Positions 5,639 to 61,330 of a stretch of 64,000 bases of DNA are shown piece by piece (the stretch's first letter is position 1; every line of letters starts with the position of its first letter). Origin of the DNA: a virus (lineage: Duplodnaviria > Caudoviricetes). Position numbers and translations under genes: made by a program. The notes beneath the pieces were generated by a model. That model had not been told where the DNA came from. It saw only the letters and a program-made list of their open reading frames with translations, and ran no database searches. Where the stretch lies: positions 591 to 64,590 of IMG/VR virus record IMGVR_UViG_2846797076_000002; one strand, given 5' to 3'.

Positions 5639-5667
5639 AAGCTAAACTATTTTTACAAATTTGTCAA
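5639..5667 (-). promoter_or_regulatory. Sigma70-type promoter with ACAAATTTGT operator
   Basis: TTGACA-17bp-TAGCTT; palindrome at 5655-5664; near-identical copies at 48510 and 58809. Confidence 0.8.
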
Positions 5668-35122: not shown

Positions 35123-35593
35123 TTACTTTGTGTTGTCGTTATCGGCCAGCCAGCCTTTGACCAGTGCCACCGCCTTGCTGGCCGCTTCTGCCGTGGATGT
35201 GAACCGCACCACCTCGACTGGATGCCCTAGCCGAGCCAGCGAGGCGTGGCGCTCGACCTGCGCCGGAGATAGCCGGCCTTTACCAACCTTGTTCTCGATC
35301 ATCCGCAGCTTGCCGCCCTTGAGGTAAATCCGTAGATCGGCTTCGCCTGGCGTCAACCCGGTGGCTATAGCATCAGCTTGGGCACGTGGTCCGCGCTTGG
35401 CTGAATTCATGTCGCCAGCAAGCAGGAACTGGCGACCGTACTCCGGCAGCGACCGCAGGGTTCGCACTTGAGCCGCCTGCCCTTCGCTTTCCTTGATGGG
35501 TGCGTCAGCGACGCACACCTTGCCCTTGGCGCTCGTGCGGATGACGACGCGCTTGCCGTTGATGCGGGTGGTCTGGCTGGTGGCTTTGGGCAT
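35123..35593 (-). CDS. VRR-NUC domain nuclease
   Basis: GLTPGEADL, IENK..KGRLSPAQ. Confidence 0.8.
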   Translation of the reverse strand: MPKATSQTTRINGKRVVIRTSAKGKVCVADAPIKESEGQAAQVRTLRSLPEYGRQFLLAGDMNSAKRGPRAQADAIATGLTPGEADLRIYLKGGKLRMIENKVGKGRLSPAQVERHASLARLGHPVEVVRFTSTAEAASKAVALVKGWLADNDNTK

Positions 35594-35597
35594 GGCG

Positions 35598-35631
35598 GTC
35601 TCCTCGTGGTGCGGTGTCGTGGTGGCGACAC
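35598..35631 (-). repeat. Leader copy
   Basis: GUGUCG-CCACCA-CGACAC..CACCACGAGGAGAC. Confidence 0.8.
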
Positions 35632-36650: not shown

Positions 36651-37070
36651 ATGCGGGTTTGTGGGGTCGATATAAAATCAAAAGAAGCTATCGTCGTAAT
36701 CTGCGAGCCATCTTCGGGTGCTGCTAACGTGGTTGAGGCAAGTACAAAGCGAATAAAGTTGGATGACGGTGCTGATGGGCCTGCATTGAAGTCCATGAAG
36801 ATGGCTATAGACAGCTATTTACACGAGCAGAAGATTGACGTGGTGGTAATTAAGGAGCGAGCAACCGGGGCGATGGGTGCGTCGGGCGTCACATTTAAAA
36901 TTGAAGCCCTTTTTCAGATGTCTCACAACGATGTCGTGCTGGTCCACGGAAACACGCTCAGGAAGTTTGCAAAGAAGAACGTGGCGGGCGCCCCCGCCGG
37001 ATTAAACGCTTATCAGAAGGACGCGTTTACGTCTGCCGCTTGGCTCCTTAACGAAAAAGGACTCTTGTGA
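36651..37070 (+). CDS. DUF3010-like protein (RNase H-like fold predicted)
   Basis: MRVCGVDIKSKEAI, VVIKER..GASGVTFKIEALFQ. Confidence 0.75.
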   Translation: MRVCGVDIKSKEAIVVICEPSSGAANVVEASTKRIKLDDGADGPALKSMKMAIDSYLHEQKIDVVVIKERATGAMGASGVTFKIEALFQMSHNDVVLVHGNTLRKFAKKNVAGAPAGLNAYQKDAFTSAAWLLNEKGLL

Positions 37071-38143
37071 TTATCAATAGTCTGTCGGTCCCAGAGGACG
37101 TCAAGGTCGCACTTCGAGAGCTTGAGAAGCAAATTGAGTTTCATAAAGCCTCTGACAAGGGCCAGAATGGCCATGTTTTGTTTGGAACGAACCGAGTGCT
37201 CGGCCGACCAGACGTCGTTAAGCTGTACTACTGGGAGAGCGGCGACCACGCTGAACCAGAGTTGCTAGCAAAACTCGAACACCCTAACATTCTCAAAGTC
37301 TACCACGCCGCTTCGATTGATTTAGAATGGGCGTTCTTTACGACGAAGTTCTGTGACGGTGGTGATCTAGACACGGTTCTAGAAAAAGGCCCGCTTGGCT
37401 TGCGGGAGGCGGTTGACGCCGTCATGATGGTCGCAGCCGGTGTAAGTTATTTGCATGGGAATGGCTTCCTGCACCGAGATCTCAAGCTCGAAAATGTATA
37501 TCGAGACAACAATCAAATCGTAATAGGGGATTTTGGATCCGTCTCTCCATGCGACGCGCAGGGGCATTGCAAAACGTTAACCAGACACTCTCTGCTGTAC
37601 AGGCCACCCGAGGCTACGGTCACCAACGATTACTTTAAAGAAAGTGACGTTTACCAGTTGGGACTGATGCTCTTTCAGTTGTTAGGCGGATATCTGCCAT
37701 ATGATGAGCGCGACTGGCTGAGCAGCAAGCAGAAAACGGAATATGATGCCCTCAAGGGCACAATCGACAAAGGGGATTACGCCACCAAAATTATAGAAGA
37801 GAAGATCAACAAGGGGCGCCTTTTAGAAATGGACACTCTTCCTGCTTACGTGCCCAAACCCTTAGTCTCATTCATTAGAACGGCAACCCGCGTTGACAGA
37901 AACGGAAGGCATAAATCTGTCTCGGATTTCATAGCAGCACTAAATAATATGCAGCGCAAGATCCCCGATTGGAGACCTGAAGGCGATCATATCGTACTTC
38001 ACAGACCCAAAAAACGCATACGCGTAACATCTGGTGGCAGTAATTTCTCAATAGAAAAAGACGTCGGTAACGGCTGGAAGAGACAGCATAGCCTGAAGCC
38101 AACTACGATGGGCGCCGCCGTGGTCATGGCGGAAATGGTTTAA
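37067..38143 (+). CDS. Hanks-type Ser/Thr protein kinase
   Basis: VVKLY, HPNILKV, LHRDLKLEN, IGDFG, YRPPE, SDVYQLG. Confidence 0.92.
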   Translation: MIINSLSVPEDVKVALRELEKQIEFHKASDKGQNGHVLFGTNRVLGRPDVVKLYYWESGDHAEPELLAKLEHPNILKVYHAASIDLEWAFFTTKFCDGGDLDTVLEKGPLGLREAVDAVMMVAAGVSYLHGNGFLHRDLKLENVYRDNNQIVIGDFGSVSPCDAQGHCKTLTRHSLLYRPPEATVTNDYFKESDVYQLGLMLFQLLGGYLPYDERDWLSSKQKTEYDALKGTIDKGDYATKIIEEKINKGRLLEMDTLPAYVPKPLVSFIRTATRVDRNGRHKSVSDFIAALNNMQRKIPDWRPEGDHIVLHRPKKRIRVTSGGSNFSIEKDVGNGWKRQHSLKPTTMGAAVVMAEMV

Positions 38144-38228
38144 CAAAAAAGGCCGGTGCATCTCTGCCCCAGCCTTCCTGTAGCTATCGCGATCTGCCAG
38201 TACATCCGTGGTCAGCGCGCAAAGCTAT

Positions 38229-39305
38229 CTACTTCCGATACGCTAGACCGCCCCAGACGCGGCCCTCGTCCCGATGACGACCACCGTGGACTGCGCCGAT
38301 ATAGGCCGCAGCGGCGGATACAAGAGCCGAGGCAGCCAAGAGGAATGCGGTCAAGATTCCGGCAACCCGCGCCTTTTCAGCAGCATCAACGGCTTTTGCC
38401 TTAGCATCCTCCAGAGCTTTCTCAGTCTCAGCCCTGAGATCGTCGATTTTCTTTTGCGCTTCGTCGACCTTCTGCTGCGCCTGCGTTCGAACAGCCTGCA
38501 CCCTGTCTACCGTCTGGTTGACGCGTGTCTGCGCGTCAGGTTGGCTAATGCCGGTACGAGCTGCGACCTGATTAGTAAGCCAGGTACGATCAGCGTCGGA
38601 AATCTCTCCAGTCGAAAGAAGGTTGCTCAGAATCCCACCGGCTTGTCGCTGAAAATCTGCGCCGTTTTGATCGCCGTTAACCGCAGGCGTATCGGTTCGC
38701 AACAGAGTGTCGGTGAAATAGTCGATCGGATTTGCCTTCAACCCTTGCGGAAGAGCTTCCTCAATGCTGGGAGCCGCTGCCTGGCCGGCGCCTTGAGCGA
38801 CGCCACCAATAGCGTTACCGGCACCAGACACCACCCCACCGGCCAATTGGCCAACACCCTGGGCAGCTCCTCCGACCGCAGAGCCAGTCGCCTCGACGGC
38901 AGACTGCGCTACGCTTCCAACGGCCCTCGCGCCGCCGGACACCACGCTGAGAGCAAGAAATGCTGAAATGACGGTTCCAAGACCCCAAACAACGAGACCG
39001 TTGATGCCGTCGCGTGTCGTGAGCTCGTTACGGTCCGCCGATCCAGCTGGGCGCCGCATACGACCCGTAATGTAGCCGCCCAACATATAAGAGCCAACCA
39101 TCGAGATAACGACGAACAATCCTGTGATGATTAGCCAGATCACGCTTATATCACCGCCATCATCGGCCGATATGGAACTCAGCCCCAGACCTCCGGCAAA
39201 CGCGGTGAGGATGGCAACTGCGCCAGATGCTATGACGGTGCCCGCGAAAATGGCTGGCCAATCGACATAGCTGCGATTTGTTTCAGTACCGATAGGATCG
39301 ACCAT
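38229..39305 (-). CDS. Membrane protein with Ala/Gly/Gln-rich helical region (stress-type moron)
   Basis: SYVDWPAIFAG, GGYITGRMR, DGINGLVVWG. Confidence 0.75.
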   Translation of the reverse strand: MVDPIGTETNRSYVDWPAIFAGTVIASGAVAILTAFAGGLGLSSISADDGGDISVIWLIITGLFVVISMVGSYMLGGYITGRMRRPAGSADRNELTTRDGINGLVVWGLGTVISAFLALSVVSGGARAVGSVAQSAVEATGSAVGGAAQGVGQLAGGVVSGAGNAIGGVAQGAGQAAAPSIEEALPQGLKANPIDYFTDTLLRTDTPAVNGDQNGADFQRQAGGILSNLLSTGEISDADRTWLTNQVAARTGISQPDAQTRVNQTVDRVQAVRTQAQQKVDEAQKKIDDLRAETEKALEDAKAKAVDAAEKARVAGILTAFLLAASALVSAAAAYIGAVHGGRHRDEGRVWGGLAYRK

Positions 39306-42316: not shown

Positions 42317-43944
42317 TAGGCTGCATCCTTAAAATCAATAACGGCCATAGATGGCATGAACTGCGCGATACGCTGACCGAGCCAGACGAATTTCGGCACG
42401 GCCCAGCTGTTACCGAGAGACTTGTAGCGAGGGCCGTCTGGAGAGTTCTGTTTGCCGCGCCACGGGATGTCGGTGTAGTCGTCAGGAAAGCCCTGAAGGC
42501 GTTCGCATTCAAGGGGAGTTAGGCGTCGGACGGCACTCGTAAGCACCGCCGGCATCACGCCTGCATTGGCATGGCTGTTGGTGTGGCCACCGGTGCGAAG
42601 TGTTGGGGCCAAGTCAAAGGATGCGTCGGCGCCGTAGTCCTTTGACGAGAAGCACACAATCGGCGTCCCCCGCCCCGTTCCATCCTCGCTCGCGTCCGCA
42701 CCTTCAGCTTTGAGCGTGTGGGCGACTTCGCCAGTGACGCAGACTGCCTGAACTTCAGCGCGAGACTCAAGTGTATAGGCAACACCCTCCTGAACACCGA
42801 CGCCGTCTGGCCCGCTATTCGGATTTGTGCGTAGCGCGCCTGCTTGAATTGCGTGGGTAACGAAATGCCCCGCGGCAGCGCCCTCTGGTCGTCCACCCAT
42901 CCCGCCGCTGAAACTGTCTTTGCAAAGAGTTCCGACGACAGCAACCATCGTTGTAGTTTCAAAATCCTGCGAGGACCCTTCGCGTGTTGCGACGCAACGC
43001 GCTATTTCAGGGATATATGTCTCTTTCGTTGCATCATGGCTGCTGTTGCCCTTGGCCAGCAGCGGATTGGCCGCCTCCACCAACCCACCATCTAGATCGA
43101 AGTCTGTTCCGAGCCCGCCGCCGCCTTTAGTGCGTGCGCTAATTGTGGGGGCAACGTCTTTCCCCTTTTCTCGGCTCGGCGGAGTATCCCTGAACATGCT
43201 TTCGGGCTCAAAAAGAACCGCTGCGGGATCTGCCCCGTTTCCAAAATCTTCGACAACGAGCACACGACGGCGTCGTTGGGCCACTCCGAAAAATTGCCCA
43301 TCTTTGACAGCCCACGCGGCCCGTCCTTTAGGTCCAGTGACCATACCGTGACGCGCCCACTTTCCTCTTCTCGGTGGTTCGATGTGGGAATCTGCACCCA
43401 CAAGTCCGGCGAGGAAGCAGCCGAAGGCGTTGTCTTTGGTGCTGAGAACGCCGACAACGTTTTCCCAGACGACGTTCCGAAGTCCATTGTTAGCTGCAAG
43501 CTCATGCGCAAGCCTCACGAATTCGAGTGACAAGTTTCCTCGCGCATCGGCGAGAGATTGACGAAGGCCAGCCACACTGAACGCCTGGCAAGGCGTGCCG
43601 CCTGCGAGAATGTCGACGCGACCAAGCGTCTTGGTGTCGATCTTGGTGAAGTCGCCCCAGTTGGTCAGAACCGACTCGACCGGCAACCGTGACACTGCCT
43701 TGAGGGCAGTTTTTCGCGAACGCTGATCCTTCAGCTTGATGCCCGGTTCTCCGGGGTTCGGCATGTGCTTAGGGCGCCCTGCACCATAGTGGTGCGCTAG
43801 CACGAAAGCAGGGAAGGGTTCGATTTCGGCCACGCCGATGCATTGCCACCCGAGTGGATGCCAAGCGACCGAGGCCGCTTCAATGCCAGAGCATACCGAC
43901 AAGAAGCGTAGGCCGGTGTGGTTGTCATTTGCCGCTATGGGCAT
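42316..43944 (-). CDS. C5 cytosine DNA methyltransferase
   Basis: SVCSGIEAA, GGTPCQAFS, WENV, QRRRR, RRLTPLECERLQGFP, LGNS. Confidence 0.93.
   Translation of the reverse strand: MPIAANDNHTGLRFLSVCSGIEAASVAWHPLGWQCIGVAEIEPFPAFVLAHHYGAGRPKHMPNPGEPGIKLKDQRSRKTALKAVSRLPVESVLTNWGDFTKIDTKTLGRVDILAGGTPCQAFSVAGLRQSLADARGNLSLEFVRLAHELAANNGLRNVVWENVVGVLSTKDNAFGCFLAGLVGADSHIEPPRRGKWARHGMVTGPKGRAAWAVKDGQFFGVAQRRRRVLVVEDFGNGADPAAVLFEPESMFRDTPPSREKGKDVAPTISARTKGGGGLGTDFDLDGGLVEAANPLLAKGNSSHDATKETYIPEIARCVATREGSSQDFETTTMVAVVGTLCKDSFSGGMGGRPEGAAAGHFVTHAIQAGALRTNPNSGPDGVGVQEGVAYTLESRAEVQAVCVTGEVAHTLKAEGADASEDGTGRGTPIVCFSSKDYGADASFDLAPTLRTGGHTNSHANAGVMPAVLTSAVRRLTPLECERLQGFPDDYTDIPWRGKQNSPDGPRYKSLGNSWAVPKFVWLGQRIAQFMPSMAVIDFKDAA
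43092..43511 (-). CDS. Nested alternative-frame ORF inside the C5 MTase (beta-polypeptide-like)
   Basis: CSLSKILETGQIPQRFFLSPKACSGILRRAEKRGKTLPPQL reads as a protein-like block in a second frame. Confidence 0.6.
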   Translation of the reverse strand: MRMSLQLTMDFGTSSGKTLSAFSAPKTTPSAASSPDLWVQIPTSNHREEESGRVTVWSLDLKDGPRGLSKMGNFSEWPNDAVVCSLSKILETGQIPQRFFLSPKACSGILRRAEKRGKTLPPQLAHALKAAAGSEQTSI

Positions 43945-43952
43945 GAGTTTTC

Positions 43953-43997
43953 TCTCCTCTGTGGTGGTGAGCCAGCGCCGATTGGTGGTCGACGCTG
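43953..43997 (-). repeat. Leader copy
   Basis: CAGCGUCGA-CCACCAA-UCGGCGCUG..CACCACCACAGAGGAGA. Confidence 0.8.
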
Positions 43998-45343: not shown

Positions 45344-46950
45344 GCTGCCACCCCAAACAAGTCGGCAGGACGGTTATCGTTTGCCGGTACCGTACCAGTC
45401 TCGACGACTTCTTTGCTTGTCGCGCCAATCGCCCACGCAATCCGGGCCGCAGCGATAGGCATGTATTCGTCCTCGCGCTCGCAACCGACGAACTGGAAAC
45501 CTTCGAGAAGGGCCGCCTTGCCTGTGCTGCCCGAGCCCATGAACGGATCCAGGATAATACCACCCGGTGGCGTGATGAGGCGGCAAAGCCACTGCATGAG
45601 GGTTGTTGGCTTAACGGTTGGGTGAACATTGCGGCGGTTGGCCTTCAAGGCGCCGTATGCGTCAGATATTTCGCTGCTGGTTCCACCGCCGCCAGATACG
45701 GTAACCTCCGGGAACGCCTCCAGCCCAGCATCACGGTCAGCACGGCTGGCTTTGGCGCAGTAGAAGAAGCGAGCGGCTGAAGTTTCCGCCTCGACGCGCG
45801 GATGACTATCAGGCCGCGCACCAAAGTCACCATAGATGCCCTTGCTTAGGCGCTCACCGTGCTTCGGCCCAACATATCCCTGCTGGCCTTTTGCATTAGG
45901 AAACGCCGCCAGCACCTCTTCGCTGCCGTCGTGGAGGATGTTGGCTGGCCAGCGGCCAAGGTCTTGTTCATTGCCACCCGGGGCACGAGAGCCGTCAATG
46001 TTGATGGCTCCAGTGCCGTGTTCAAGAACGTTTTCGGCAACTGTCCCTATCAGGGGCTTTCGCGCAAGGCAGATGGGCTCCCACGCCGGCTTAAGTGCGG
46101 TTCCCCACCCTTGCCACGCAGACGCCTCCTCATCCAAGCTGCGGATGGTCCTGTCGCCTTCAAATCGAAGGTCACCAAAGCCAGCGGGCGTCGAAGCTAC
46201 TTCGCCGATAATCTCTGCTTCAGCCCAACGCTCGCCGTGCGTGCCCTTGCGACCATTAAGGCGTGAAACCTCGATCGAGATAAACTCAAATCCATCTCTG
46301 CCCGACAAAGATAGAGCGTCAACAAGTCCATCCCACTGCTCATTGGTTGGCAGAGCAGGCTGGGAGTCGGTGTCACGCGCTGCCCAATGGTCGATGAGAC
46401 GCGGATTGCAGTCGCCAAAATGCTGAGTGAGGTCTTTCGACTTCAGACCTGCCTCATCCATTGCAGCACGAATGAACCGGCAAACGACTCGCACCGGCTC
46501 AACGTCTTCGACGCGACGCTTGGCAATCCCCTTGCTGACATCATGGCTCTTCGGAAACCCTGAACCGTAAACCCAACCAAGCTGATCGCGGATCTCAAAT
46601 CCAGCATCTTCGATCGCAACAGCCATGCGGTGATAGGTTCGCGTTCCAGAGAACGCGACAACGTGGCCGCCTGGCTTCAGGACGCGCAGAACTTCGGCCC
46701 AGAACTCTTCGGAGAATGCTACTTCGCCGGTGTCCCAGCTTTTCCCCATAAAACCAGCGGCGCCGCGACCATAAACGTCTTTGGCCGGGGCAGATCCCGG
46801 CTTTCCGAAACGCTTCTGAATCGAGACCAGCGCATAAGGCGGGTCGGTCACGACGCTGTCGATCGAGTTGTCGGCAAGGCCGCGCAACACGTCACGGCAA
46901 TCGTTTTGATGCAGCACGACTCTTCCGTCGTGCATCGATGTGATGCTCAC
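45340..46950 (-). CDS. N6-adenine/N4-cytosine DNA methyltransferase with internal HTH-like insert
   Basis: VTDPPY, HPTVKP, LDPFMGSGSTG; ends ANDNRPADLFGVAA. Confidence 0.92.
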   Translation of the reverse strand: MSITSMHDGRVVLHQNDCRDVLRGLADNSIDSVVTDPPYALVSIQKRFGKPGSAPAKDVYGRGAAGFMGKSWDTGEVAFSEEFWAEVLRVLKPGGHVVAFSGTRTYHRMAVAIEDAGFEIRDQLGWVYGSGFPKSHDVSKGIAKRRVEDVEPVRVVCRFIRAAMDEAGLKSKDLTQHFGDCNPRLIDHWAARDTDSQPALPTNEQWDGLVDALSLSGRDGFEFISIEVSRLNGRKGTHGERWAEAEIIGEVASTPAGFGDLRFEGDRTIRSLDEEASAWQGWGTALKPAWEPICLARKPLIGTVAENVLEHGTGAINIDGSRAPGGNEQDLGRWPANILHDGSEEVLAAFPNAKGQQGYVGPKHGERLSKGIYGDFGARPDSHPRVEAETSAARFFYCAKASRADRDAGLEAFPEVTVSGGGGTSSEISDAYGALKANRRNVHPTVKPTTLMQWLCRLITPPGGIILDPFMGSGSTGKAALLEGFQFVGCEREDEYMPIAAARIAWAIGATSKEVVETGTVPANDNRPADLFGVAA

Positions 46951-46958
46951 GTTGTTTT

Positions 46959-47026
46959 GTCTCCTCAGACTGTGGTGTTCCCGCCGAAGCGGGACGCCGC
47001 GTTGGTGGCGCGGCGGGTGGTGTGGT
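46959..47026 (-). repeat. Leader copy
   Basis: CGCCGCG-CCACCAA-CGCGGCG..CACCACAGUCUGAGGAGAC. Confidence 0.8.
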
Positions 47027-47848: not shown

Positions 47849-48462
47849 GCGGACACCGCCTTTTCCGCCTGCGCGAGTTTATGGTGCGCAACGCTTAACT
47901 CCCATTCCTCCTTGAGAATGGGTCTCGCACCATCGAACTCGGGCTTGAAGTTTCTGCAGTCCTCGCCAACCGAGTATCCTAGCGCTTCATACTCCGCGAC
48001 GATCGGCTCGATATCCGGAACATAAAGGGCAAAAGGTCCGTCCTCAGAGAGATAGAGCAGCCCGACGCCTGAACTGAAACCGTGAGATATCACAGCGTTA
48101 CCGTGGCTGGTTTCATTCTTGTAGGAGATAGTGGTCGGCACGCCGAGTGCTCTCGCCAACTCGTAACCGCGCGCATCGTAGCCGTCGATATCCAACAGGC
48201 GCTTCTCCCAATCACTTCCCTTTTTGGGATATGACACGCCGCGCTTGTTTGGCTTCTTGAAATCGCCGTTGATAGCGCCGTCGAACATCACGCCGCTAAT
48301 TGTGCCCTTACTGATATCAACAACGTATTTTTGCGCGCCAAGCTCTTTTGCAAGTTCGTTGTTTTTCTTAATGACTGCGACGCGCTTGGCTACGTGCGCC
48401 AGCGCCAATTCCAGCGTTTTTCCGCCCTCTACTGAAAAATAGAGGTCTCTTCTTTCGCTCAT
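47845..48462 (-). CDS. Hypothetical phage protein
   Basis: Leader/SD at 48468-48474. Confidence 0.7.
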   Translation of the reverse strand: MSERRDLYFSVEGGKTLELALAHVAKRVAVIKKNNELAKELGAQKYVVDISKGTISGVMFDGAINGDFKKPNKRGVSYPKKGSDWEKRLLDIDGYDARGYELARALGVPTTISYKNETSHGNAVISHGFSSGVGLLYLSEDGPFALYVPDIEPIVAEYEALGYSVGEDCRNFKPEFDGARPILKEEWELSVAHHKLAQAEKAVSA

Positions 48463-48467
48463 TCTCA

Positions 48468-48500
48468 TCTCCTCAATGTGGTGACGCCATTGGTCTGGCG
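48468..48500 (-). repeat. Leader copy
   Basis: CGCCA-GACCAA-UGGCG-U-CACCACAUUGAGGAGA. Confidence 0.75.
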
Positions 48501-48509
48501 CAGAACATA

Positions 48510-48538
48510 AAGCTAAACCGTTTTTACAAATTTGTCAA
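48510..48538 (-). promoter_or_regulatory. Sigma70-type promoter with ACAAATTTGT operator
   Basis: TTGACA-17bp-TAGCTT. Confidence 0.8.
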
Positions 48539-50303: not shown

Positions 50304-50582
50304 ATGGACCTTTCTTGGTGGGCAGACTTTTTTGCGGTGATTGGGCTAGCGCTGACGGCTATTGGCGCAGGCTTGACCGCTAGATCGGTCATTCTTACCG
50401 AAGCAGAAGCAGCAACTATTGGCGTGTCTCGATATGCGCCCGAGACGCACGAGCAGGCATTGCAACTCCCGCACGTCCAGTCGTTACTTAAGTCATCGCG
50501 GGGCGCAAAACGGGGCCTAGTCATTGTGTCGGTTGGTACGGTCCTACAGATCGCCGTACCTTTCTTCAGGCTATTTCTCTAA
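50304..50582 (+). CDS. Small two-TM protein (moron)
   Basis: Hydrophobic termini; opposite strand. Confidence 0.5.
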   Translation: MDLSWWADFFAVIGLALTAIGAGLTARSVILTEAEAATIGVSRYAPETHEQALQLPHVQSLLKSSRGAKRGLVIVSVGTVLQIAVPFFRLFL

Positions 50583-51115
50583 CTAGCCTCCCGTAGCAGC
50601 CCAAGCACCCTCGCCCGCTCCTTAATAACGATCTGGCGCACGCGCTCCTTTGTGAGGCCGTGGTCGTTGCCAATGGCTTCCAGCGTCTCGCCCATCGCCC
50701 TGCGCATCAACATCGCGCCATTGCGGCCTTCCAGCAAAGAGACAACACGAGTCAAGTCGGTGCCCTCCTCCTGATGCGGATCGGTAGAGCCCGGCATCTC
50801 GTCGAATGCCGAGAGACTGCAAATTTCGGCAGAGCGCGACTTCGTGGAATTGGTGCGGACAAATTCCTGAGCAGTGCCTCGAACGCAAAGGACGGCCCAC
50901 GTCCAGAAGGTCTCAAGGCGACATTCGCGGTGCCGGCGCAACATGACGACCATCGCTGACTGAAACAGCTCGTCGGCCGCGTCCTCGTTCTTGGTGATCT
51001 TTCGCGCCAGTCTTCGCAAGGCCGGCTCGTAGGCCAGAAGCTTGCGGTCGAACTCGGGACTGCGCGGATTGTTGTCGTTGGCAGCGACAAGCGGCGTGCG
51101 TGCTACAAGCGGCAT
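50579..51115 (-). CDS. ECF-like sigma factor / sigma70 region 2+4 protein
   Basis: LRRLARKIT.NEDAADELFQ, GETLEAIG...LTKERVRQI. Confidence 0.8.
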   Translation of the reverse strand: MPLVARTPLVAANDNNPRSPEFDRKLLAYEPALRRLARKITKNEDAADELFQSAMVVMLRRHRECRLETFWTWAVLCVRGTAQEFVRTNSTKSRSAEICSLSAFDEMPGSTDPHQEEGTDLTRVVSLLEGRNGAMLMRRAMGETLEAIGNDHGLTKERVRQIVIKERARVLGLLREAS

Positions 51116-51119
51116 GATG

Positions 51120-51156
51120 GTCTCCTCATGTGGTGTGGTCAGGCGTTGGTGGCGCC
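51120..51156 (-). repeat. Leader copy
   Basis: GGCG-CCACCAA-CGCC..ACCACACCACAUGAGGAGAC. Confidence 0.8.
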
Positions 51157-52358: not shown

Positions 52359-53411
52359 CTATACCCTCATCGGCATGCAAACGAGCGTCAGCCCCTCGAA
52401 GCCGTCGGACGTGATCAGCCCAGGCGTGCCGCCGTCCTGCAAGGCCAGCTTGACCGGACCAGCTGGCAACACATTCAGCACGTCACGGACGTAGGCGGCG
52501 TTGAAACCGATATCCATCGGCTCGCCGCTGTATTCCGCCTCGACTTCATCATTCGCCGACGCCTCGCCAGCCGCCACAGCAAGCGCGATACTGCCGGGCG
52601 CGATGCTGAACTTCACGGCACGGCCACGCTCAGACGACACGGTCGACACGCGATCCGACGCCTTCATCAGTGCATCGCGATCGACAGTCACGACGCGTTC
52701 GTTGCTTTTCGGAATGACGCGTTCGTAATCTGGGAACGTGCCGTCGATCAGCTTTGAGGTAATGCGCACGTCGTCCGACACGATGCGGATTTTCTGCTGG
52801 CTGACCGACACACGCACCTCCCCCTTCGGAAGCAGGCCGACCGTTTTGCGCGGAACGATAATGCCTTCGAAGGCTGGCAGCTCCGGGCCGTAGTGGCGAC
52901 CGAGACGATGACCGTCGGTGGCGACGGCTTCCGACTTGCTGCCGCCCTTGAAGAACACGCCGTTGAGGTAATAGCGCGTTTCCTCCGTCGAGATTGCAAA
53001 CGACACCGGCGCAAAAAGCGCAGCAAGGTCGATTTCGAATTCAGCGTCGAACCTGTCTTCGCCGAGCGTTGGGAAGTCTTCTGCAGAGAGCGTGGCGAGC
53101 GAGAACCGCGAGCGTCCGGACTTCACCGAAAGCTTGTCTCCATCCAGAGACATGGTGATGTCTCCCGTTGCCTTGCGGGCGATGTCGTTGAGTAGCTTGG
53201 CGCTGACGCAGATATTTCCGGGCTTGCTGACCTCTGCGGACACGCCTGCCGTGGCGCTGATATCGAGGTCGGTGGCGGTGATGGCCAGACCGTCGCCTGC
53301 GGCAGCAAGCTGGACGCTCGACAGGATGGGGATGCTAACTCTGCTCTCGACGACCTTTGTCGTGGCTGCAAGCGCACGTGTCAGGTCTTCCTTGTGAATG
53401 ACAAGGTGCAT
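52359..53411 (-). CDS. dnaN: DNA polymerase III beta sliding clamp (phage copy)
   Basis: ATDLDI, ETRYYLNGV, VATDGHRL, SKLIDGTFPDYERVIP, GFNAAY, MPMRV. Confidence 0.93.
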   Translation of the reverse strand: MHLVIHKEDLTRALAATTKVVESRVSIPILSSVQLAAAGDGLAITATDLDISATAGVSAEVSKPGNICVSAKLLNDIARKATGDITMSLDGDKLSVKSGRSRFSLATLSAEDFPTLGEDRFDAEFEIDLAALFAPVSFAISTEETRYYLNGVFFKGGSKSEAVATDGHRLGRHYGPELPAFEGIIVPRKTVGLLPKGEVRVSVSQQKIRIVSDDVRITSKLIDGTFPDYERVIPKSNERVVTVDRDALMKASDRVSTVSSERGRAVKFSIAPGSIALAVAAGEASANDEVEAEYSGEPMDIGFNAAYVRDVLNVLPAGPVKLALQDGGTPGLITSDGFEGLTLVCMPMRV

Positions 53412-53415
53412 GGGC

Positions 53416-53469
53416 GTCTCCTTGGCGATGTGTGGTGGTGCCTGCCGTGGTGAGCGGCAGGCGGTGGTG
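53416..53469 (-). repeat. Leader copy
   Basis: CACCACC-GCCUGCCG-CUCACCA-CGGCAGG-CACCACCACAC..AAGGAGAC. Confidence 0.75.
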
Positions 53470-54306
53470 TTAGGCTGCGAAAGAGAACGGCGACTGCTTC
53501 TTGGGCGGCTCGTAGCCGATCGGATAGCCGCAGCCATCCTCGCCTTCATCGTAACGGGTCGCGTCGAACGGCTGGCCCTTCAGCTCAGCAATCTTCTTGA
53601 ACAGACCAATAGCGCTGCCTGGCTGATCCTCGTTGTCGTTTGCGACCCACGATTCCTTGCCTTCGTCGTCGACAGTCAGTGCAGCGATTGCCGCGTCCAG
53701 AGAGAAAGGCGTGCCTTCTGTGCCGAGAACGACCTTCTCGCCATAAGCGCCGCCGATCTGGTCTTTCAGCTCTTCCCACGTGTCGATTTTCACCTTGCGG
53801 CCAGCCAACACAATCTTGAGAATGTCGCCCTTACCGATCGTATAGCCGCGATCCTGATACTTGAGAACGCGCGTTGCCGACGCCAGCGGGTAACGGGTAC
53901 CTGGATGGAATCGCAGGAAGCGCTGGGAGTTGTGTTTCAGGAAGTCGTTGTGGAATGAGAATTCATCGGTGTCGAAGTCCAGTGCGCCCATAACGACAGT
54001 GAAGTCGAACGCGTCGAAGATGTCCTGTGCTGTCGGGAAGTAGTCGAAGTGCATGAACTGGATTGGCGTTCCGCCACTCTCAGCAAATGTCACGGCACGC
54101 TTTGTCGTGGAAACGCACCAGAACCCATCCTCATACGCCTGCGCCACGGCATATTCGAAAGCCTCCCGGCTCTTGAAGTAGACGTCTACGTCGTTGATGT
54201 CTCGATTGGTGAAGACGCTCGTCACCGCTCCGCCAGCCGCGAATGCGCCGGGGATCGGGTAGCATTTCTCCGTAATCTTTCTGGCTTCCGCCTTGTAGTT
54301 CGTCAT
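53470..54306 (-). CDS. Pol-beta-superfamily nucleotidyltransferase-like protein
   Basis: AAGGAV....DINDVDVYF, FDFTVVMGA, RVLKYQDRGY. Confidence 0.7.
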   Translation of the reverse strand: MTNYKAEARKITEKCYPIPGAFAAGGAVTSVFTNRDINDVDVYFKSREAFEYAVAQAYEDGFWCVSTTKRAVTFAESGGTPIQFMHFDYFPTAQDIFDAFDFTVVMGALDFDTDEFSFHNDFLKHNSQRFLRFHPGTRYPLASATRVLKYQDRGYTIGKGDILKIVLAGRKVKIDTWEELKDQIGGAYGEKVVLGTEGTPFSLDAAIAALTVDDEGKESWVANDNEDQPGSAIGLFKKIAELKGQPFDATRYDEGEDGCGYPIGYEPPKKQSPFSFAA

Positions 54307-54311
54307 GCAAA

Positions 54312-54358
54312 TCTCCTCAAACGTGGTGATATAGCGGGCCGCTGGTGAGGCAGCCCGC
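54312..54358 (-). repeat. Leader copy
   Basis: GCGGGCUGC-CUCACCA-GCGGCCCGC..CACCACGUUUGAGGAGA. Confidence 0.8.
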
Positions 54359-54369
54359 GTTGGTGTGGG

Positions 54370-54948
54370 TTACTTGCTGCCCCAGGGCCGGCGCGTCGTG
54401 CCAGCGGCCGCAGCGGCAGGCTTGTTGTCGTTGCTGGCTGCGGTGCGGCGATTGTCGTTGGCTGCGGCTGGCGCAGCATCGACCTTCGGCTCAGGCAGGT
54501 TGCCCTCATCAGGGTAATAGTACTTCTTCAACTCGTTGCGCGCCGCGTACTTCGGGGTACCGTCGGCGTTTTTCTCCTTGCTGTCCTTGCCCATGCCGAT
54601 GCGGGCAAAGAACGAGATGAAATGCAATTCATCAGAATCTTCTGGCGCCTCGTCGTGGCCGAGTGAGCGCAGTAGGCAGGCAAATTGGCGCTGGCCGATC
54701 TCCTGCGTCTGAGGATTTGGATGCTGCAGATTGTAGTTGTTGAAGACCTTGCGGCCTTTGAGTTCCTCGGGAGCAAGGACGTCGATTGTCACGCTCAGAT
54801 TGATGGCGTGGTCGCGGGTATCCTTGTTCTTTTCCTTGATCTCGGACGCGCTGATCTCAAGCTGGTAGTCGCCATTCGGCAGGTTGGTGAAATCGCGCTG
54901 CTGGGTGTTCTCTTCGGTCGCTTCAACTCTGACGCCAATCTTGGCCAT
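54370..54948 (-). CDS. ssDNA-binding protein, DUF669-like
   Basis: LPNGDY, GRKVFNNYNL, C-terminal RPW; follows Sak4-like ATPase. Confidence 0.8.
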   Translation of the reverse strand: MAKIGVRVEATEENTQQRDFTNLPNGDYQLEISASEIKEKNKDTRDHAINLSVTIDVLAPEELKGRKVFNNYNLQHPNPQTQEIGQRQFACLLRSLGHDEAPEDSDELHFISFFARIGMGKDSKEKNADGTPKYAARNELKKYYYPDEGNLPEPKVDAAPAAANDNRRTAASNDNKPAAAAAGTTRRPWGSK

Positions 54949-54953
54949 GCGTA

Positions 54954-54978
54954 GTCTCCTTGTGGTGTGATTTGGTGG
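54954..54978 (-). repeat. Leader copy (no ACCA-loop hairpin seen)
   Basis: CCACCAAAUCACACCACAAGGAGAC. Confidence 0.7.
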
Positions 54979-56360: not shown

Positions 56361-56672
56361 TCATGCCGCAACCCTCACTTCATCAGCCAAGGCCCGACGA
56401 CGAGCAGCGCTATGCATGAACATTGGTAGGCGTTCCTCGCTCACCTTTGCGTTGGCCGCCGCGCGTAAAGCTCGTTTCCGGTCACCGCGAGTTGTGCCGT
56501 CAGCAAATTTGCGCGTCTCTTTCGGCATCTTGCTCCAGCCATTGCCGCCAGTAAGGGACGACATAAGATGCATGCGCCGGTCAAAGTGAGCGCAGTCGGT
56601 TGATGGAAGGCCGAGCTTGGTGTCGTTCTCATGCTCGCGCTGCGCAAGCTTCTCGAATACGTTCTTGGACAT
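56361..56672 (-). CDS. Hypothetical basic protein
   Basis: Leader/SD upstream; ends RVAA. Confidence 0.65.
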   Translation of the reverse strand: MSKNVFEKLAQREHENDTKLGLPSTDCAHFDRRMHLMSSLTGGNGWSKMPKETRKFADGTTRGDRKRALRAAANAKVSEERLPMFMHSAARRRALADEVRVAA

Positions 56673-56676
56673 TTGT

Positions 56677-56724
56677 GTCTCCTCAATGATGTGGTGAAGA
56701 GCGGCTGGTTGGTAGCCAGCCGCT
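56677..56724 (-). repeat. Leader copy
   Basis: AGCGGCUGG-CUACCAA-CCAGCCGCU..CACCACAUCAUUGAGGAGAC. Confidence 0.8.
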
Positions 56725-58407: not shown

Positions 58408-58754
58408 GCTGTCACCCCACGCAGTGCGTAGTCGTTGACCGCCTGCCCGGCCTGCAAGTCAGCATCGTCGATGTTGTCATTTGCGGCGGTAAGAACGCGC
58501 GGCAGCGAAACCGGCATGAGGCCAGAAAGTGTGGAGCAGCCGCCGTTGTGCGGCGCCAAGTGCGTCGTGCGGTCTGTATTGTTGTCATTGGCTGGGATGA
58601 AGGCGCGCTGCTTGTGCAGGCCGTATGCGCGCCGCAGCCGCTGGTATGCGGCCATTGGCTTGACGTTGTGTCTGGCGGCAATATCTGCGACGCTCTCACC
58701 GTTTTCACGGCGCGCGTGCATATCCGCCAGCATAGTGCTGGTGATAAGCGTCAT
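58404..58754 (-). CDS. HTH-containing small protein with two ANDN motifs
   Basis: GESVADIAARHNV; first gene after promoter 58837. Confidence 0.65.
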   Translation of the reverse strand: MTLITSTMLADMHARRENGESVADIAARHNVKPMAAYQRLRRAYGLHKQRAFIPANDNNTDRTTHLAPHNGGCSTLSGLMPVSLPRVLTAANDNIDDADLQAGQAVNDYALRGVTA

Positions 58755-58757
58755 GTC

Positions 58758-58799
58758 GTCTCCTCTGAGTGGTGGCCGCCTCGTGGTTGACAAAGCGAC
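58758..58799 (-). repeat. Leader copy
   Basis: GUCGCUUUG-UCAACCA-CGAGGCGGC (G-U pairs only on mRNA strand)-CACCACUCAGAGGAGAC. Confidence 0.75.
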
Positions 58800-58808
58800 A
58801 GGGTTGTG

Positions 58809-58837
58809 AAACTAAACTATTTTTACAAATTTGTCAA
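58809..58837 (-). promoter_or_regulatory. Sigma70-type promoter with ACAAATTTGT operator
   Basis: TTGACA-17bp-TAGTTT. Confidence 0.8.
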
Positions 58838-58860: not shown

Positions 58861-59463
58861 ATGCCTGAGATTAAATCGCGCCTCCTGCAGTCGATCTTGA
58901 AAGAGCAAAAGCGTAGAGCCGTAAAGGATCGCGCTGTGTACGAAGAGCTAGGCGTGCCTCAGCAGACCTACAGCACCTGGAAGGCTGGCGTCATCCCAAG
59001 ACCTAGGCAATTCCCGGCGATTGCCGCCTTCCTGGGTGTCTCCGAAGATGACGTGGCAGAGATGGCTCGCGAGGCGGCAGAAACCGCTCCTTCCATCACG
59101 CCTATTACGGTTGCCCGCACCTATGGCAAAATCTCCGACCGCAAGGCTGGCAAGTTCAAATTCGAGCCCATCAACGACGGCCGCAAACGCATTCCCGAAG
59201 GCCGTTACGCCATCGTCATCGACACGAAGGTGATGGAGCCCGTCTTCCACGTCGGCGTGAAAGCGTGGCTTGACCCTTCCCGCTGGCCAGCCGTTGGTGA
59301 CGACGTGCTCGCGCATTCGGGCGGATTCGCTTGGATCGGACGATTTGAAGGAATGAGCAACGGCGCTGTTCAGCTTAGCCGCTACGATGGATCGCAGCTT
59401 GAAGTGAAGAACGTGGAAGCTGTTCATGTCATCGTCCTTTCGGAGCGGGTGGCTACGGCGTAG
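58861..59463 (+). CDS. XRE-family HTH regulator with degenerate S24-like C-terminal domain
   Basis: ELGVPQQTYSTWKAG, IAAFLGVS; MEPVF..G...WLDP without a clear catalytic Ser/Lys. Confidence 0.75.
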   Translation: MPEIKSRLLQSILKEQKRRAVKDRAVYEELGVPQQTYSTWKAGVIPRPRQFPAIAAFLGVSEDDVAEMAREAAETAPSITPITVARTYGKISDRKAGKFKFEPINDGRKRIPEGRYAIVIDTKVMEPVFHVGVKAWLDPSRWPAVGDDVLAHSGGFAWIGRFEGMSNGAVQLSRYDGSQLEVKNVEAVHVIVLSERVATA

Positions 59464-59487
59464 CAGGTTGGTTGCCTGCATTGGCAC

Positions 59488-59516
59488 TTGACAATTCCTA
59501 CAAATTTGTGTAGGAA
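59488..59516 (+). promoter_or_regulatory. Sigma70-type promoter with ACAAATTTGT in spacer, driving predicted sRNA
   Basis: TTGACA-17bp-TAGGAA; palindrome 59500-59509. Confidence 0.65.
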
Positions 59517-59522
59517 ACTGAC

Positions 59523-59653
59523 TGTCCGATGTGGTGTCGGATATGGAACACGCGCTTTGATCCCGCCTTACGGCGAAGGTCTCCTCGGCGTGTTAGTACG
59601 GAGAAGGGGCGGAGTTACGGGTGGTGCCGGCTCATTACGCCCCTTTTCGTTTT
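59523..59653 (+). ncRNA. Predicted three-hairpin antisense sRNA complementary to the repeated leaders
   Basis: UGUCCGA-UGUGGUG-UCGGAUA; AACACGC...GGUCUCCUCG-GCGUGUU; GAGAAGGGGCG..CGG-GUGGUG-CCG..CGCCCCUUUUC + U tail; G-U pairs favour + strand. Confidence 0.65.
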
Positions 59654-59737
59654 ATGCTGCATGCACGACAACGCCGGCAGAGCTTCATGCTCCACCGGCG
59701 CTAAGTTTTGGAAGTCATTATTTGCGGTCTTTCTCAT
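59615..59737 (-). CDS. 40-aa hypothetical peptide
   Basis: GGGGAGAC SD, MRKTANNDFQN; 3' end antisense to the predicted sRNA. Confidence 0.45.
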   Translation of the reverse strand: MRKTANNDFQNLAPVEHEALPALSCMQHKTKRGVMSRHHP

Positions 59738-59793
59738 AGTCGTCTCCCCTTCTGGCATTATTGATTTTGTTATCGCCAGTTGGTTTCTGGCGC

Positions 59794-59919
59794 TTACGGC
59801 GGCCCGGTCACTGGCCGCCATCTTCTTCTGCGCTCGGGCGCCTCATGCACCCATCTTCTTCTCGCGGTCATCGCTTGGGTCGTTGACCGTCTTCTTTCGG
59901 AGTCTTTCATCACGCGCAT
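59794..59919 (-). CDS. 41-aa Arg-rich peptide (not in ORF track)
   Basis: MRVMKDSERRRSTTQAMTARRRWVHEAPERRRRWRPVTGPP; first plausible ORF after the leftward promoter. Confidence 0.3.
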   Translation of the reverse strand: MRVMKDSERRRSTTQAMTARRRWVHEAPERRRRWRPVTGPP

Positions 59920-59990
59920 TTCCCTTTCATTTGCAGTTTCGTCTTTCGGGTCTTTTGCCCTGCCGGCTTCTGTCTGGCCGCTGTTGATTC

Positions 59991-60034
59991 ACAAACTAAC
60001 ACAAACAAATTTTAGGTCAATAAGTTTGTTTGTG
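59991..60034 (-). promoter_or_regulatory. Leftward early promoter/operator region divergent from cI
   Basis: TTGACC-16bp-TAGTTT; inverted CACAAACAAA...TTTGTTTGTG. Confidence 0.65.
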
Positions 60035-60055
60035 CAAATGCGTTATTTTTGCTAA

Positions 60056-60871
60056 ATGATTGTGGAAACTAGGGATAAAGTGATGGAAACGGCCCTTACA
60101 CGCCTCCTCAACGAAAAACTTCGTGAAAAGTTTGACGGCAACGCCAGCGAGCTCGCTCGAGTCGTGGGGACCAGTCAGCAGAACATCAGCAACTGGTTGA
60201 ATGGGGATGTTATCAAACCTTCCTATTGGAAAGTGGCGGCGCGTGCTCTTGGTCTGCGAGAAATAGAACTCGACTCAATTATGCTGGCGGTTCGAAGGGA
60301 TGCAGGACCCGATCTCCCCGCGGAGGCATGGGTACGAGATCTGGGCTTTCGAAAAATGCCACACACTGAGGAGGAAGTCCCCGATTCCGATGATCGGATC
60401 CCTCTGCTGCGGCCCACTCGGCAGGCGCCAAACGCCACCGTTGCGCCCCGCCAACAGATTGTAACAACGAACAAAATGCTTCCCGTTCTTGGCATGGCCG
60501 TCGGGGGTGAGGATGGCCGTTACATATTCAATGGTAGTGTGATCGACTATGTTGTCTGCCCTCCGTCTTTAGAGAACGTAGCGGGAGCCTATGCGGTCTA
60601 TATTGATGGCGAGTCGATGTATCCTCGATTTAAGGCTGGCGAGACCGTGTGGGTCCACCCAGGTAAGCCAGCTCGTCGAGGCGACGACGTGATTGTGCAG
60701 CTCAAACCTATAGAAGACGACGGCTCTCCCCCTTGGGGCTACGTCAAAGAGTACGTCGGCAGGCAGGGCAACAACCTGGTTCTCCGGCAGTACAATCCAC
60801 CAATCGAGATCCAGTTTGACGTCAACGAGGTTCTGACGACTCACCCGATCGTACTGGCCGGAAAATACTAA
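60056..60871 (+). CDS. CI-like repressor (HTH + S24 autopeptidase)
   Basis: SELARVVGTSQQNISNW, AVGG, GESMYP, YVKEY. Confidence 0.9.
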   Translation: MIVETRDKVMETALTRLLNEKLREKFDGNASELARVVGTSQQNISNWLNGDVIKPSYWKVAARALGLREIELDSIMLAVRRDAGPDLPAEAWVRDLGFRKMPHTEEEVPDSDDRIPLLRPTRQAPNATVAPRQQIVTTNKMLPVLGMAVGGEDGRYIFNGSVIDYVVCPPSLENVAGAYAVYIDGESMYPRFKAGETVWVHPGKPARRGDDVIVQLKPIEDDGSPPWGYVKEYVGRQGNNLVLRQYNPPIEIQFDVNEVLTTHPIVLAGKY

Positions 60872-60931: not shown

Positions 60932-60971
60932 TTGCAACCAGCAAACCCAGCTGGCCACCACAAGAGGAGAC
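60932..60971 (+). repeat. Leader copy on + strand
   Basis: UUGC-AACCA-GCAA..CCACCACAAGAGGAGAC. Confidence 0.75.
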
Positions 60972-60976
60972 TACCA

Positions 60977-61330
60977 ATGTACAGACCACGTCCTGAAGAG
61001 TTTGACGACGTCGCCGTTGCCGCCCAGTCCGATGAGCCTATGAAGCGCCCGGACCACAAGGCCAAGAAGCACGGCAAGCCCAAGACGAAATATGAGTACA
61101 TGCGCCGCTTCCCCAAGAAGACGCGTAACGGCGAGGAAGTCGGCGGCGGCCACTTCGTATTCCGCCGTGGCGACAGCACTGGACGCATTCGTCCCTGCAT
61201 GTGGCCCTTCGAGCACCCCTCCTATGATTCTGCGCTGGTCGAAGCCGCGCGCCTGCACTCTGAGTACGGCGGCACCTTTGAAGTCTTCGTTCGCGTCGGC
61301 AGCGTCGAGGCGCTTGAGGCCGGCGAATGA
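60977..61330 (+). CDS. Hypothetical basic protein
   Basis: Leader/SD; PFEHPSYDSALVEAARL. Confidence 0.7.
   Translation: MYRPRPEEFDDVAVAAQSDEPMKRPDHKAKKHGKPKTKYEYMRRFPKKTRNGEEVGGGHFVFRRGDSTGRIRPCMWPFEHPSYDSALVEAARLHSEYGGTFEVFVRVGSVEALEAGE

Follow-up and report, generated by a model that had tools for sequence, protein, structure and literature searches.

A conserved RNA gene in the immunity region of 16-3-like rhizobiophages, with loops complementary to a family of phage leaders

A 64,000-nucleotide (nt) stretch of a rhizobial prophage, hereafter the window, carries on its plus strand, at 59488-59655, the gene of a structured RNA. Three short motifs that this RNA is predicted to expose match, as complements, the two blocks of a leader that recurs in front of about 16 genes of the same phage. 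The gene is made up as follows.

59488-59493 (+): -35 hexamer TTGACA of the putative RNA promoter, as read from the sequence
59495-59516 (+): perfect palindrome TTCCTACA-N6-TGTAGGAA with the core ACAAATTTGT, placed in the promoter spacer and including the -10 hexamer TAGGAA; a single copy in the window
59523-59543 (+): hairpin 1, loop UGUGGUG at 59530-59536; RNAfold structure, stem covaries
59547-59594 (+): hairpin 2 with an inner hairpin, carrying the anti-Shine-Dalgarno site GUCUCCUC (site 2) at 59579-59586; UCCUC unpaired in the RNAfold structure
59601-59648 (+): hairpin 3, the terminator stem, with the inner hairpin CGG-GUGGUG-CCG and its loop at 59621-59626; RNAfold structure, inner stem covaries
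59649-59655 (+): U-rich tail GUUUUAU, the probable 3' end of the RNA

The spacer between TTGACA and TAGGAA (59511-59516) is 17 nt long and the tail reads CGCCCCUUUUCGUUUUAU, ending at about 59655; promoter, three hairpins, U-rich tail and loop positions are as a preliminary description of this DNA had given them. In about 20 proviral copies recovered by pattern scans of IMG/VR, the segment bounded by the -35 hexamer and the U-tail is near-identical and both flanks diverge, conservation starting exactly at TTGACA. Distant homologues have TTGACA or TTGCAA at an equal distance from the RNA, and the position of the -35/-10 pair is fixed in all lineages of the family. The spacer palindrome looks like an operator, to which a repressor would bind. 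At the other end, an intrinsic terminator with a U-tail, a feature of small RNA genes, is present by fold and sequence; in one relative (L023) likeness to the other copies stops directly after the U-tail, and a larger subgroup of the family has a U-tailed hairpin about 50 nt further downstream.

RNAfold predicts the three hairpins for 59518-59655 (+) at -56.5 kcal/mol (z -2.48; 2 of 200 shuffles as stable), and for the minus strand of the same segment it gives -44.3 kcal/mol (z -2.76; 1 of 200). Since these z-scores are comparable, a single-sequence z-score cannot pick the strand. The earlier choice of the plus strand, made from G-U pairs, draws its support instead from the family: of 23 members, 22 fold better as the plus strand (on average -58.4 kcal/mol; minus strand, -47.5), which together with the G-U pairs suggests a plus-strand gene. 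In the minimum free energy structure G79-U80-C81 of GUCUCCUC form pairs, leaving UCCUC free. The computed cost of opening, for a 130-nt RNA that begins at 59523, is 2.0 kcal/mol for loop 1, 5.0 for GUCUCCUC, 2.4 for UCUCCUC and 0.04 for loop 3, compared with 16.7 for a stem control, in keeping with the earlier view that all three motifs are mostly unpaired. A coding reading of the plus-strand open reading frames (ORFs) across the RNA, of 83 and 152 residues, was rejected because most relatives have CUG in place of the loop-1 AUG and insertions and deletions in hairpin 2 break every frame.

The RNA was found neither in Rfam 15 nor by full-text literature searches. Scanning with cmscan, of the whole window at the gathering score and of 59300-60100 at expectation values (E) up to 10, gave nothing at the RNA locus: six weak matches fall within 59300-60100 and none of the six overlaps 59518-59655. 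The accessible parts of a 2025 review of phage small RNAs contain no mention of Rhizobium or Agrobacterium (PMC12197685). A search of a plasmid collection returned no match to the RNA, and a loop-free pattern scan of genome contigs returned seven, all in unrelated phyla, which look like chance.

Relatives exist in other phages. By blastn, the 3' half of the RNA is matched in the lytic Agrobacterium phages 7-7-1 and Milano, whose loci hold a whole homologue with its own TTGCAA-17-TATAAA/GATAAA promoter and palindrome, a hairpin 1 loop CUGGUAA, CUCCUC in the apical loop of the next hairpin, and its own terminator hairpin with an inner GGUGGUG loop. A first alignment of 12 sequences has compensatory changes in 9 of 40 pairs. 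The covariance model built from it (R1) matches 7 of 48 records among contigs found through the leader pattern described below. A 12-mer of the loop-3 hairpin was detected in 19 of 34 records, a single time in each (8 matches for the reversed control), and the full RNA architecture is present at 16 of the 19 sites; G002 and G010, which lack the 12-mer, have variant forms (loop-3 stem CAC/GUG; loop GGUGGUU).

A sample blind to the RNA was drawn through the helix-turn-helix (HTH) protein encoded next to it: an alignment of 11 such proteins, searched against IMG/VR, yielded 67 loci, which were oriented on the protein. The signature UGGU(G/A)...CUCCU(C/G)...GUGGU(G/U) lies within 420 nt 3' of the HTH gene in 61 of them. 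Three of the other six are cut by the contig end after 3-73 nt, one (L273) has no RNA, and two (L275 and L276) have variant RNAs. Thirty-six sequences from this sample, the window included, plus those of 7-7-1 and Milano form a set of 38 distinct sequences, scored on a structure that comprises hairpin 1, both stems of hairpin 3 (outer and inner) and a UUCG hairpin; nine rows of window type and 7-7-1 type misfit the outer-stem columns and were counted there as gaps or breaks. Paired cells amount to 90.3% against 73.2% in shuffles, and 15 of 19 pairs change on both sides. The covariation score is 0.478 compared with 0.200 in shuffles, none of 500 of which reaches it, and falls to at most 0.127 when partners are slid by 1-3 columns. 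In the hairpin 1 stem, pair counts are CG:21/UA:17 and CG:24/AU:9/UA:2; in the hairpin 3 inner stem, GC:33/AU:5 and GC:30/AU:6/CG:1. The stems turn over and the loops stay: UGUGGUG is kept in 35 of the 38 sequences, the GUGGUG hairpin in 37, GUCUCCUC in 33 and CUCCUC in 35, and many members have two to four GUGGUG or GGUGGUG motifs per RNA. The preliminary description had proposed to look in related prophages for covariation with invariant loops, and had said that loss of the loops from relatives that keep the leaders would speak against its idea; the stems do covary and the loops are not lost. It is near certain that this is a real, structured, conserved and previously undescribed RNA gene.

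The loops are complementary to a family of phage leaders. CACCACA occurs 21 times in the window against 6.4 expected and GAGGAGAC 15 times against 1.95, counts that none of 100 shuffles reaches in either case. When the reverse complement of each of the RNA's 124 7-mers is counted in the rest of the window, the top three by observed over expected are GGUGGUG of loop 3 (3.7-fold), UGUGGUG of loop 1 (3.3-fold) and UCUCCUC of site 2 (3.1-fold), with the target excess on the coding strand of the left arm. A regular expression for an ACCA-loop hairpin followed by CACCAC(A)-N-GAGGAGAC-N-start (CACCAC-N-GGAG-N-start) returns 16 credible leaders, 14 on the minus and 2 on the plus strand, spread over 2.9-61.8 kb, and two doubtful ones at 30.8 and 28.6 kb; the earlier count of about 16 leaders on both arms stands. 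Ten of the 16 leader genes were scanned with Pfam and seven have hits: AAA_24, DUF669, beta clamp, a sigma-70-family factor, two DNA methylases and MazG.

58752-58774 (-): leader CACCACUCAGAGGAGACGACAUG, before the first left-arm gene (HTH-like, 116 residues)
56670-56696 (-): leader before a gene of 103 residues
55902-55927 (-): leader of the GAGGAGGC variant, before the AAA_24 gene
54946-54967 (-): leader with AAGGAGAC, before the DUF669 gene
54305-54328 (-): leader before a small gene
53409-53437 (-): leader before the DNA polymerase III beta clamp gene
51113-51135 (-): leader CACCACAUGAGGAGACC, before the sigma-70-family factor gene
48460-48483 (-): leader behind the early promoter at 48538
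46948-46977 (-): leader before the N6/N4 DNA methylase gene
43942-43969 (-): leader before the C5 DNA methylase gene
35591-35611 (-): leader before a gene of 156 residues
35082-35102 (-): leader of the GGGGAGAC variant, before a gene of 305 residues
4609-4631 (-): leader before a gene of 417 residues
2898-2924 (-): leader before the MazG-like gene
60956-60979 (+): right-arm leader before a gene of 117 residues
61772-61800 (+): right-arm leader before a gene of 70 residues

Leader-bearing genes are headed by three near-identical minus-strand promoters, TTGACAAATTTGTAAAAATAGTTTAG, at 58812-58837, 48513-48538 and 5642-5667. The palindrome ACAAATTTGT spans the -35 edge of all three, and the core CAAATTTG is common to them and to the RNA promoter. 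They look like the repressor-controlled early promoters of the phage. Neither the spacer palindrome nor these promoters with their shared CAAATTTG had appeared in the preliminary description.

RNA and leaders also go together outside the window. Counted on both strands as CACCAC-N0-8-GAGGAG, leaders number 12, 10, 10, 14 and 11 in five relatives (controls, 0-1) and 4, 8, 1, 6 and 10 in five further ones; in the 197 kb surrounding 21 loci identified by the RNA there are 133 (reversed-order control, 1). The same tag occurs 3 times in the 1.68 Mb of Sinorhizobium meliloti pSymB, one replicon of one host species. Every temperate relative tested has both RNA and leaders; L273 has neither. In L275 (G050) the RNA lacks site 2 and keeps both GUGGUG loops, and the phage holds one GAGGAGAC and no GGAGAGAC. 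On the minus strand of this phage, near 8504, stands a leader with four tandem CACCAC boxes before AGGAG.

The most telling relative is a divergent provirus, G049 (L276), in which site 2 of the RNA reads GUCUCUCC. Its record holds 14 copies of GGAGAGAC and 2 of GAGGAGAC, compared with 3 and 15 in the window, 1 and 14 in phage 16-3, and 1 and 17 in G008. One of the 14 belongs to the RNA gene; 12 stand 2-5 nt ahead of a start codon, and CACCAC precedes 9 of these 12. Two swapped bases in the RNA are mirrored by two swapped bases in a dozen leaders, and pairing remains 8 of 8. Restriction-site avoidance was considered as the cause of this switch and rejected, GAGGAG being present 22 times in G049 overall. 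A conserved unpaired seed whose targets change with it is a feature of the small RNA class, and it is found here in the loops, the stems and G049.

These relations make it fairly likely that the segment from 59523 to about 59650 (+) is the gene of a small RNA of about 128 nt that acts in trans, pairs with tagged early leaders and blocks initiation of translation, its targets probably being the phage's own tagged messages. The RNA would be transcribed from its own sigma-70-type promoter, marked by an operator-like palindrome, and end at an intrinsic terminator. Its three mostly unpaired motifs, UGUGGUG, GUCUCCUC and GUGGUG, could pair with the bipartite tag 5'-CACCAC(A)-N1-6-GAGGAGAC-3' before about 16 genes, among them genes of replication, recombination, methylation, nucleotide metabolism and a sigma factor. 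With CUCCUC 5' of GUGGUG on the RNA and CACCAC 5' of GAGGAG on the message, the two partners could form an antiparallel two-site clamp over the Shine-Dalgarno sequence. Nearest-neighbour pairing energies are -12.8 and -7.8 to -9.4 kcal/mol, and the opening costs are small. The AC of GAGGAGAC is not part of the GGAGG-type core that pairs with 16S ribosomal RNA, and it pairs with GU of the RNA. Once the Shine-Dalgarno sequence is covered, initiation would be blocked, perhaps with decay of the message, for all the early genes together.

We infer the pairing in vivo, the sign of the effect (repression and not activation) and the timing. Because the RNA promoter has the ACAAATTTGT box of the early promoters, RNA and targets may be under common control, and we lean slightly towards co-expression with the early genes, which would make the RNA a delayed shut-off or set a threshold. 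Apart from this lean, constitutive expression in the lysogen, and with it immunity, is no less possible. The sigma-70-family factor gene (regions 2 and 4; 50582-51115, minus strand) lies behind CACCACAUGAGGAGACC, among the best-matching leaders, and the proposed RNA could gate whatever this factor turns on.

A number of observations weigh against this proposal. Seeds of 6-8 nt are short. Co-occurrence of RNA and leaders within one phage lineage is expected from common descent alone, and the co-variation of seed and leaders is one evolutionary event in one lineage, G049. A second variant lineage was sought: the viral scan and the metagenome scan (2 hits) yielded the standard site 2 only, and a scan for GTCTCTCC before loop 3 gave two chance matches in coding DNA and missed G049 itself, which fits the pattern, so that these scans are not exhaustive. 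RNAs of 16-3 type read CUCCUG, yet leaders in their phages are still mostly GAGGAG (12 and 10, compared with 1 and 2 with CAGGAG), at the cost of one terminal pair; in L268 the RNA reads GCCUCCUC and the leaders GAGGAGAA/GAGGAGAC, which do not match. Pairing with leaders leaves the conserved linkers AUAUGGAA/AUAUCGAA and UAGUACGA/UAGUAGGA unexplained. A consensus promoter and terminator scan of the window lists neither the RNA promoter, because TAGGAA has no final T, nor the terminator, because its branched stem falls outside the scan rule. Cover of the locus in RNA libraries consists of unstranded assembled Logan contigs (4 of 22 listed runs examined), and transcription of the plus strand is presumed. 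Contigs of two isolate RNA-seq runs (X1 and X3) span 59200-59865, and in a soil metatranscriptome (X9) contigs cover 59494-59643 but not the near flanks. As the flanking sequence varies from one relative to the next, missing cover there is uninformative.

The lytic phages add a further objection: 7-7-1 and Milano carry the RNA and no such leaders. Because the RNA is kept without them, its loops must serve some role there beyond the carrier's own leaders. In 7-7-1 (about 69 kb) GAGGAG is absent from the plus strand and occurs once on the minus strand, inside the RNA gene, where about 10 copies are expected on each; Milano has 3 copies of GAGGAG/CTCCTC in about 69 kb against about 20 expected. 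As the depletion hits both strands, a DNA-level effect such as restriction avoidance is suggested. GGAGAC is likewise rare in 7-7-1 (2 copies, about 27 expected). The 7-7-1 loop-1 complement TTACCAG, with 3 and 4 copies, is not enriched. A palindrome CTACAAAT-NN-TTTGTNTAG, like that of the window's RNA promoter, marks promoters of these phages (L002 1589-1607; L003 2409-2427; L025 35650-35668 and 37797-37815); one of those in 7-7-1 stands directly 3' of the RNA gene. The multi-target, trans-acting RNA of the preliminary description accordingly fares unevenly: leader complementarity, co-occurrence and the joint change in G049 bear it out, and the leaderless lytic phages, like CUCCUG beside GAGGAG leaders, do not.

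Persistence of loop 3 and CUCCUC in 7-7-1 and Milano would fit a different partner, a protein or RNA of the host that the phage RNA binds or titrates in the manner of CsrB, in which case the phage leaders merely resemble its complement. The repetition of GUGGUG or GGUGGUG in many members and the conserved single-stranded linkers, unrelated to the leaders, would fit as well. A protein sponge, however, predicts sequence identical to its targets and not their complement, the co-variation in G049 points to RNA-RNA pairing, and the leader tag is rare in the host DNA counted above. Nor is there a partner protein common to all carriers: the HTH gene of the temperate phages has no detectable relative beside the 7-7-1 copy, comparison of the window HTH protein with 7-7-1 gp68 having detected no homology. 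We judge a host or protein partner of this kind unlikely.

Pairing with the phage's own leaders has next to be set against the surroundings of the gene, which hold these features.

58861-59463 (+): HTH_3 gene of 200 residues, homologue of phage 16-3 p070 and invariably the gene next to the RNA on its 5' side (Pfam HTH_3 at E 2e-4, below the curated cut-off; synteny)
59464-59480 (+): hairpin GCAGG-UUGGUUG-CCUGC, just 3' of the HTH gene stop and 5' of the RNA promoter
59615-59737 (-): 40-codon ORF whose leader is of the family type (ACCAA-loop hairpin, GGGGAGAC) and whose last codons are antisense to hairpin 3
59976-60020 (-): PR-like leftward promoter TTGACC-N17-TAGTTT, pointing at the RNA gene (from the sequence; the annotated PR of 16-3 has the same place and orientation)
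60056-60871 (+): gene of a repressor with HTH_3 and Peptidase_S24 domains, positional counterpart of the 16-3 C repressor (Pfam; synteny with the annotated c gene)

The order of HTH gene, RNA, variable space and C-type repressor is kept in all 12 mapped loci. Phage 16-3 encodes the RNA on its minus strand (about 36.88-37.02 kb), in an unannotated interval flanked by p069 and p070, with PR and the C repressor just beyond it. The RNA family is located in the immunity region of 16-3-like temperate rhizobiophages. At 37067-37693 of NC_011103.1, p070 (HTH) and p071 are annotated on opposite strands of the same DNA; because relatives of p070 are conserved in the 67 loci, p071 is probably not a gene. 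The space between RNA and C-type repressor is a cargo slot, filled for example by a 262-residue protein (start MTDWHYSDNGG) in L169 and a 164-residue minus-strand ORF in L164, and varying also in L250, L259 and others. An inverted repeat, CACAAACAAA...TTTGTTTGTG, at 59990-60040 between the PR-like promoter and the S24 repressor start is probably the operator region of this repressor.

A gene that follows an HTH gene so regularly (61 of 67 loci) might be nothing but the 3' untranslated region (UTR) and terminator of that gene, its complementarity to the leaders a functionless relic of an inverted leader copy. Hairpin 3 is indeed a terminator, and the hairpin just past the stop codon, at 59464-59480, also has a UGGU-type loop. 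Its relatives (L005-L024) have stems CGAG/CUCG or AUAAGG/CCUUAU and loops GUGGUGG or UUUGGUGAAA; UGGU is kept in these loops and is complementary to the ACCAA loops of the leader hairpins, making it possible that this hairpin is a fourth anti-ACCA loop, in the 3' UTR of the HTH gene. A 3' UTR does not account for a -35/-10 pair at a fixed distance in all lineages, 7-7-1 and Milano included, where no such HTH gene precedes, nor for conservation that begins at the -35 hexamer and not at the stop codon; and a relic would neither hold three loops invariant through stem turnover nor co-vary with leaders. We consider the UTR explanation very improbable.

The promoter that faces the RNA suggests, as a further alternative, that the main job of the RNA is cis-antisense or collision control of a head-on, PR-like leader transcript, after the fashion of lambda OOP/cII or P22 sar/ant, with the leader complementarity secondary. 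The RNA, with its strong hairpins, would then halt this transcript or pair with it. TTGACC-N17-TAGTTT at 60020, the same arrangement at the annotated PR of 16-3, and the 40-codon ORF overlapping hairpin 3 in the window all fit. This ORF is the first reading frame behind the promoter and is missing from most family members. Elsewhere the layout differs: the neighbours of the RNA in 7-7-1 and Milano are co-directional genes and no convergent promoter is annotated, in 16-3 the ORF after PR stops about 160 nt short of the RNA, and the space beyond the RNA is the varying cargo. A perfect cis partner, moreover, needs no invariant loops with freely covarying stems, and it would go unexplained why, in G049, site 2 and a dozen leaders at scattered positions changed together. 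Cis-antisense control as the main job has a low probability in our view; as an addition to leader targeting, with which it is not mutually exclusive, a role against the PR-type transcript is possible.

If the phage does direct the RNA at its own leaders, the early programme of a whole group of temperate phages of rhizobia and agrobacteria depends on one small RNA and a sequence tag. For decades phage 16-3 has served as a model of repressor-operator control, and the RNA is unannotated in its record. A many-target design is familiar from cellular small RNAs; we know of no phage RNA that acts in this way on the phage's own genes. A bolder view, which we hold to be rather doubtful, sees here a phage-private regulon, in which a master RNA and a co-evolving two-box tag (CACCAC plus GAGGAGAC) on about 15 early mRNAs, that of a sigma factor included, form an RNA layer of the lysis-lysogeny or early-late switch across the 16-3 supergroup, and in which 7-7-1 and Milano may have captured the RNA as a weapon that silences the early genes of resident or co-infecting 16-3-like phages, their own tag-less, GAGGAG-poor messages being invisible to it. 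The copies in lytic phages raise RNA-based interference between phages as a testable idea. The natural pairs GUCUCCUC/GAGGAGAC and GUCUCUCC/GGAGAGAC are a ready-made orthogonality test, and a compact, portable translational off-switch for alphaproteobacteria is a possible use.

Among known systems, c4 of P1 and P7 (immI; Rfam C4) is closest in mechanism. It is processed out of the operon transcript that also holds its target, and a single operon is under its control. According to a recent review, c4 is an immunity-region RNA whose short, loop-placed sequences pair near the ribosome-binding site and block translation, a few loop bases setting the specificity (PMC12197685). The likeness, which the window RNA shares, is that of loop sequences complementary to the ribosome-binding sites of targets and not one of membership: cmscan of the whole window and of the locus gives no match to the C4 covariance model, and the window RNA has a -35/-10 pair and a terminator of its own, which bound the conservation, and about 16 dispersed targets with a dedicated tag.

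Alpha-r14 or cuckoo RNAs (CcsR1-4) and RsaE/RoxS are trans-acting, multi-hairpin RNAs that repress many mRNAs at the ribosome-binding site through C/U-rich anti-Shine-Dalgarno loops. These RNAs are chromosomal and repeat one CCUCC-type motif, which in the alpha-r14/cuckoo loops reads CCUCCUCCC; NfeR1, of the alpha-r14/cuckoo group, resembles the window RNA as a trans-acting anti-Shine-Dalgarno small RNA. The window RNA differs in being phage-borne, in having a single CUCCUC with two or more GUGGUG loops and no Rfam match, and in that its targets carry a second box, CACCAC, rare in host DNA. Alpha-r35 (RF02346) has no match at the RNA locus; its match, at 38142-38239 (-), lies elsewhere inside the prophage, scores 45.3 bits (gathering score, 45) and is the window's only match to an Rfam model at that threshold.

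P22 sar and lambda OOP are small antisense RNAs encoded in an immunity region or next to it, each directed against an early transcript; they are purely cis-encoded and fully complementary to one target. The review also mentions sas and other P22 RNAs (PMC12197685). The window RNA shares the head-on layout with sar and OOP and differs from them in its short conserved seeds, which match many distant sites. The 40-codon ORF on the opposite strand (59737-59615), not hydrophobic by eye and missing from most family members, sets the locus apart from type I toxin-antitoxin systems, in which a small hydrophobic toxin ORF overlaps the RNA and is conserved along with it. RNAs of the HK022 put type stand at the head of an operon and are read on by the same polymerase, whereas a terminator closes the window RNA, beyond which lie a convergent ORF and 400 nt with no co-directional gene and, in relatives, varying cargo; L164, with a Shine-Dalgarno sequence and ATG about 35 nt downstream of the RNA, is an exception. 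CsrB and RsmZ sponges display the same loop motif on several hairpins, a copy of the motif in their mRNA targets; the window RNA also repeats a loop motif, but carries the complement of its presumed targets. In function, the nearest analogue is RegA of T4, one protein that represses translation of many early mRNAs at their initiation regions; the factor proposed here would be an RNA, and its recognition element an explicit sequence tag.

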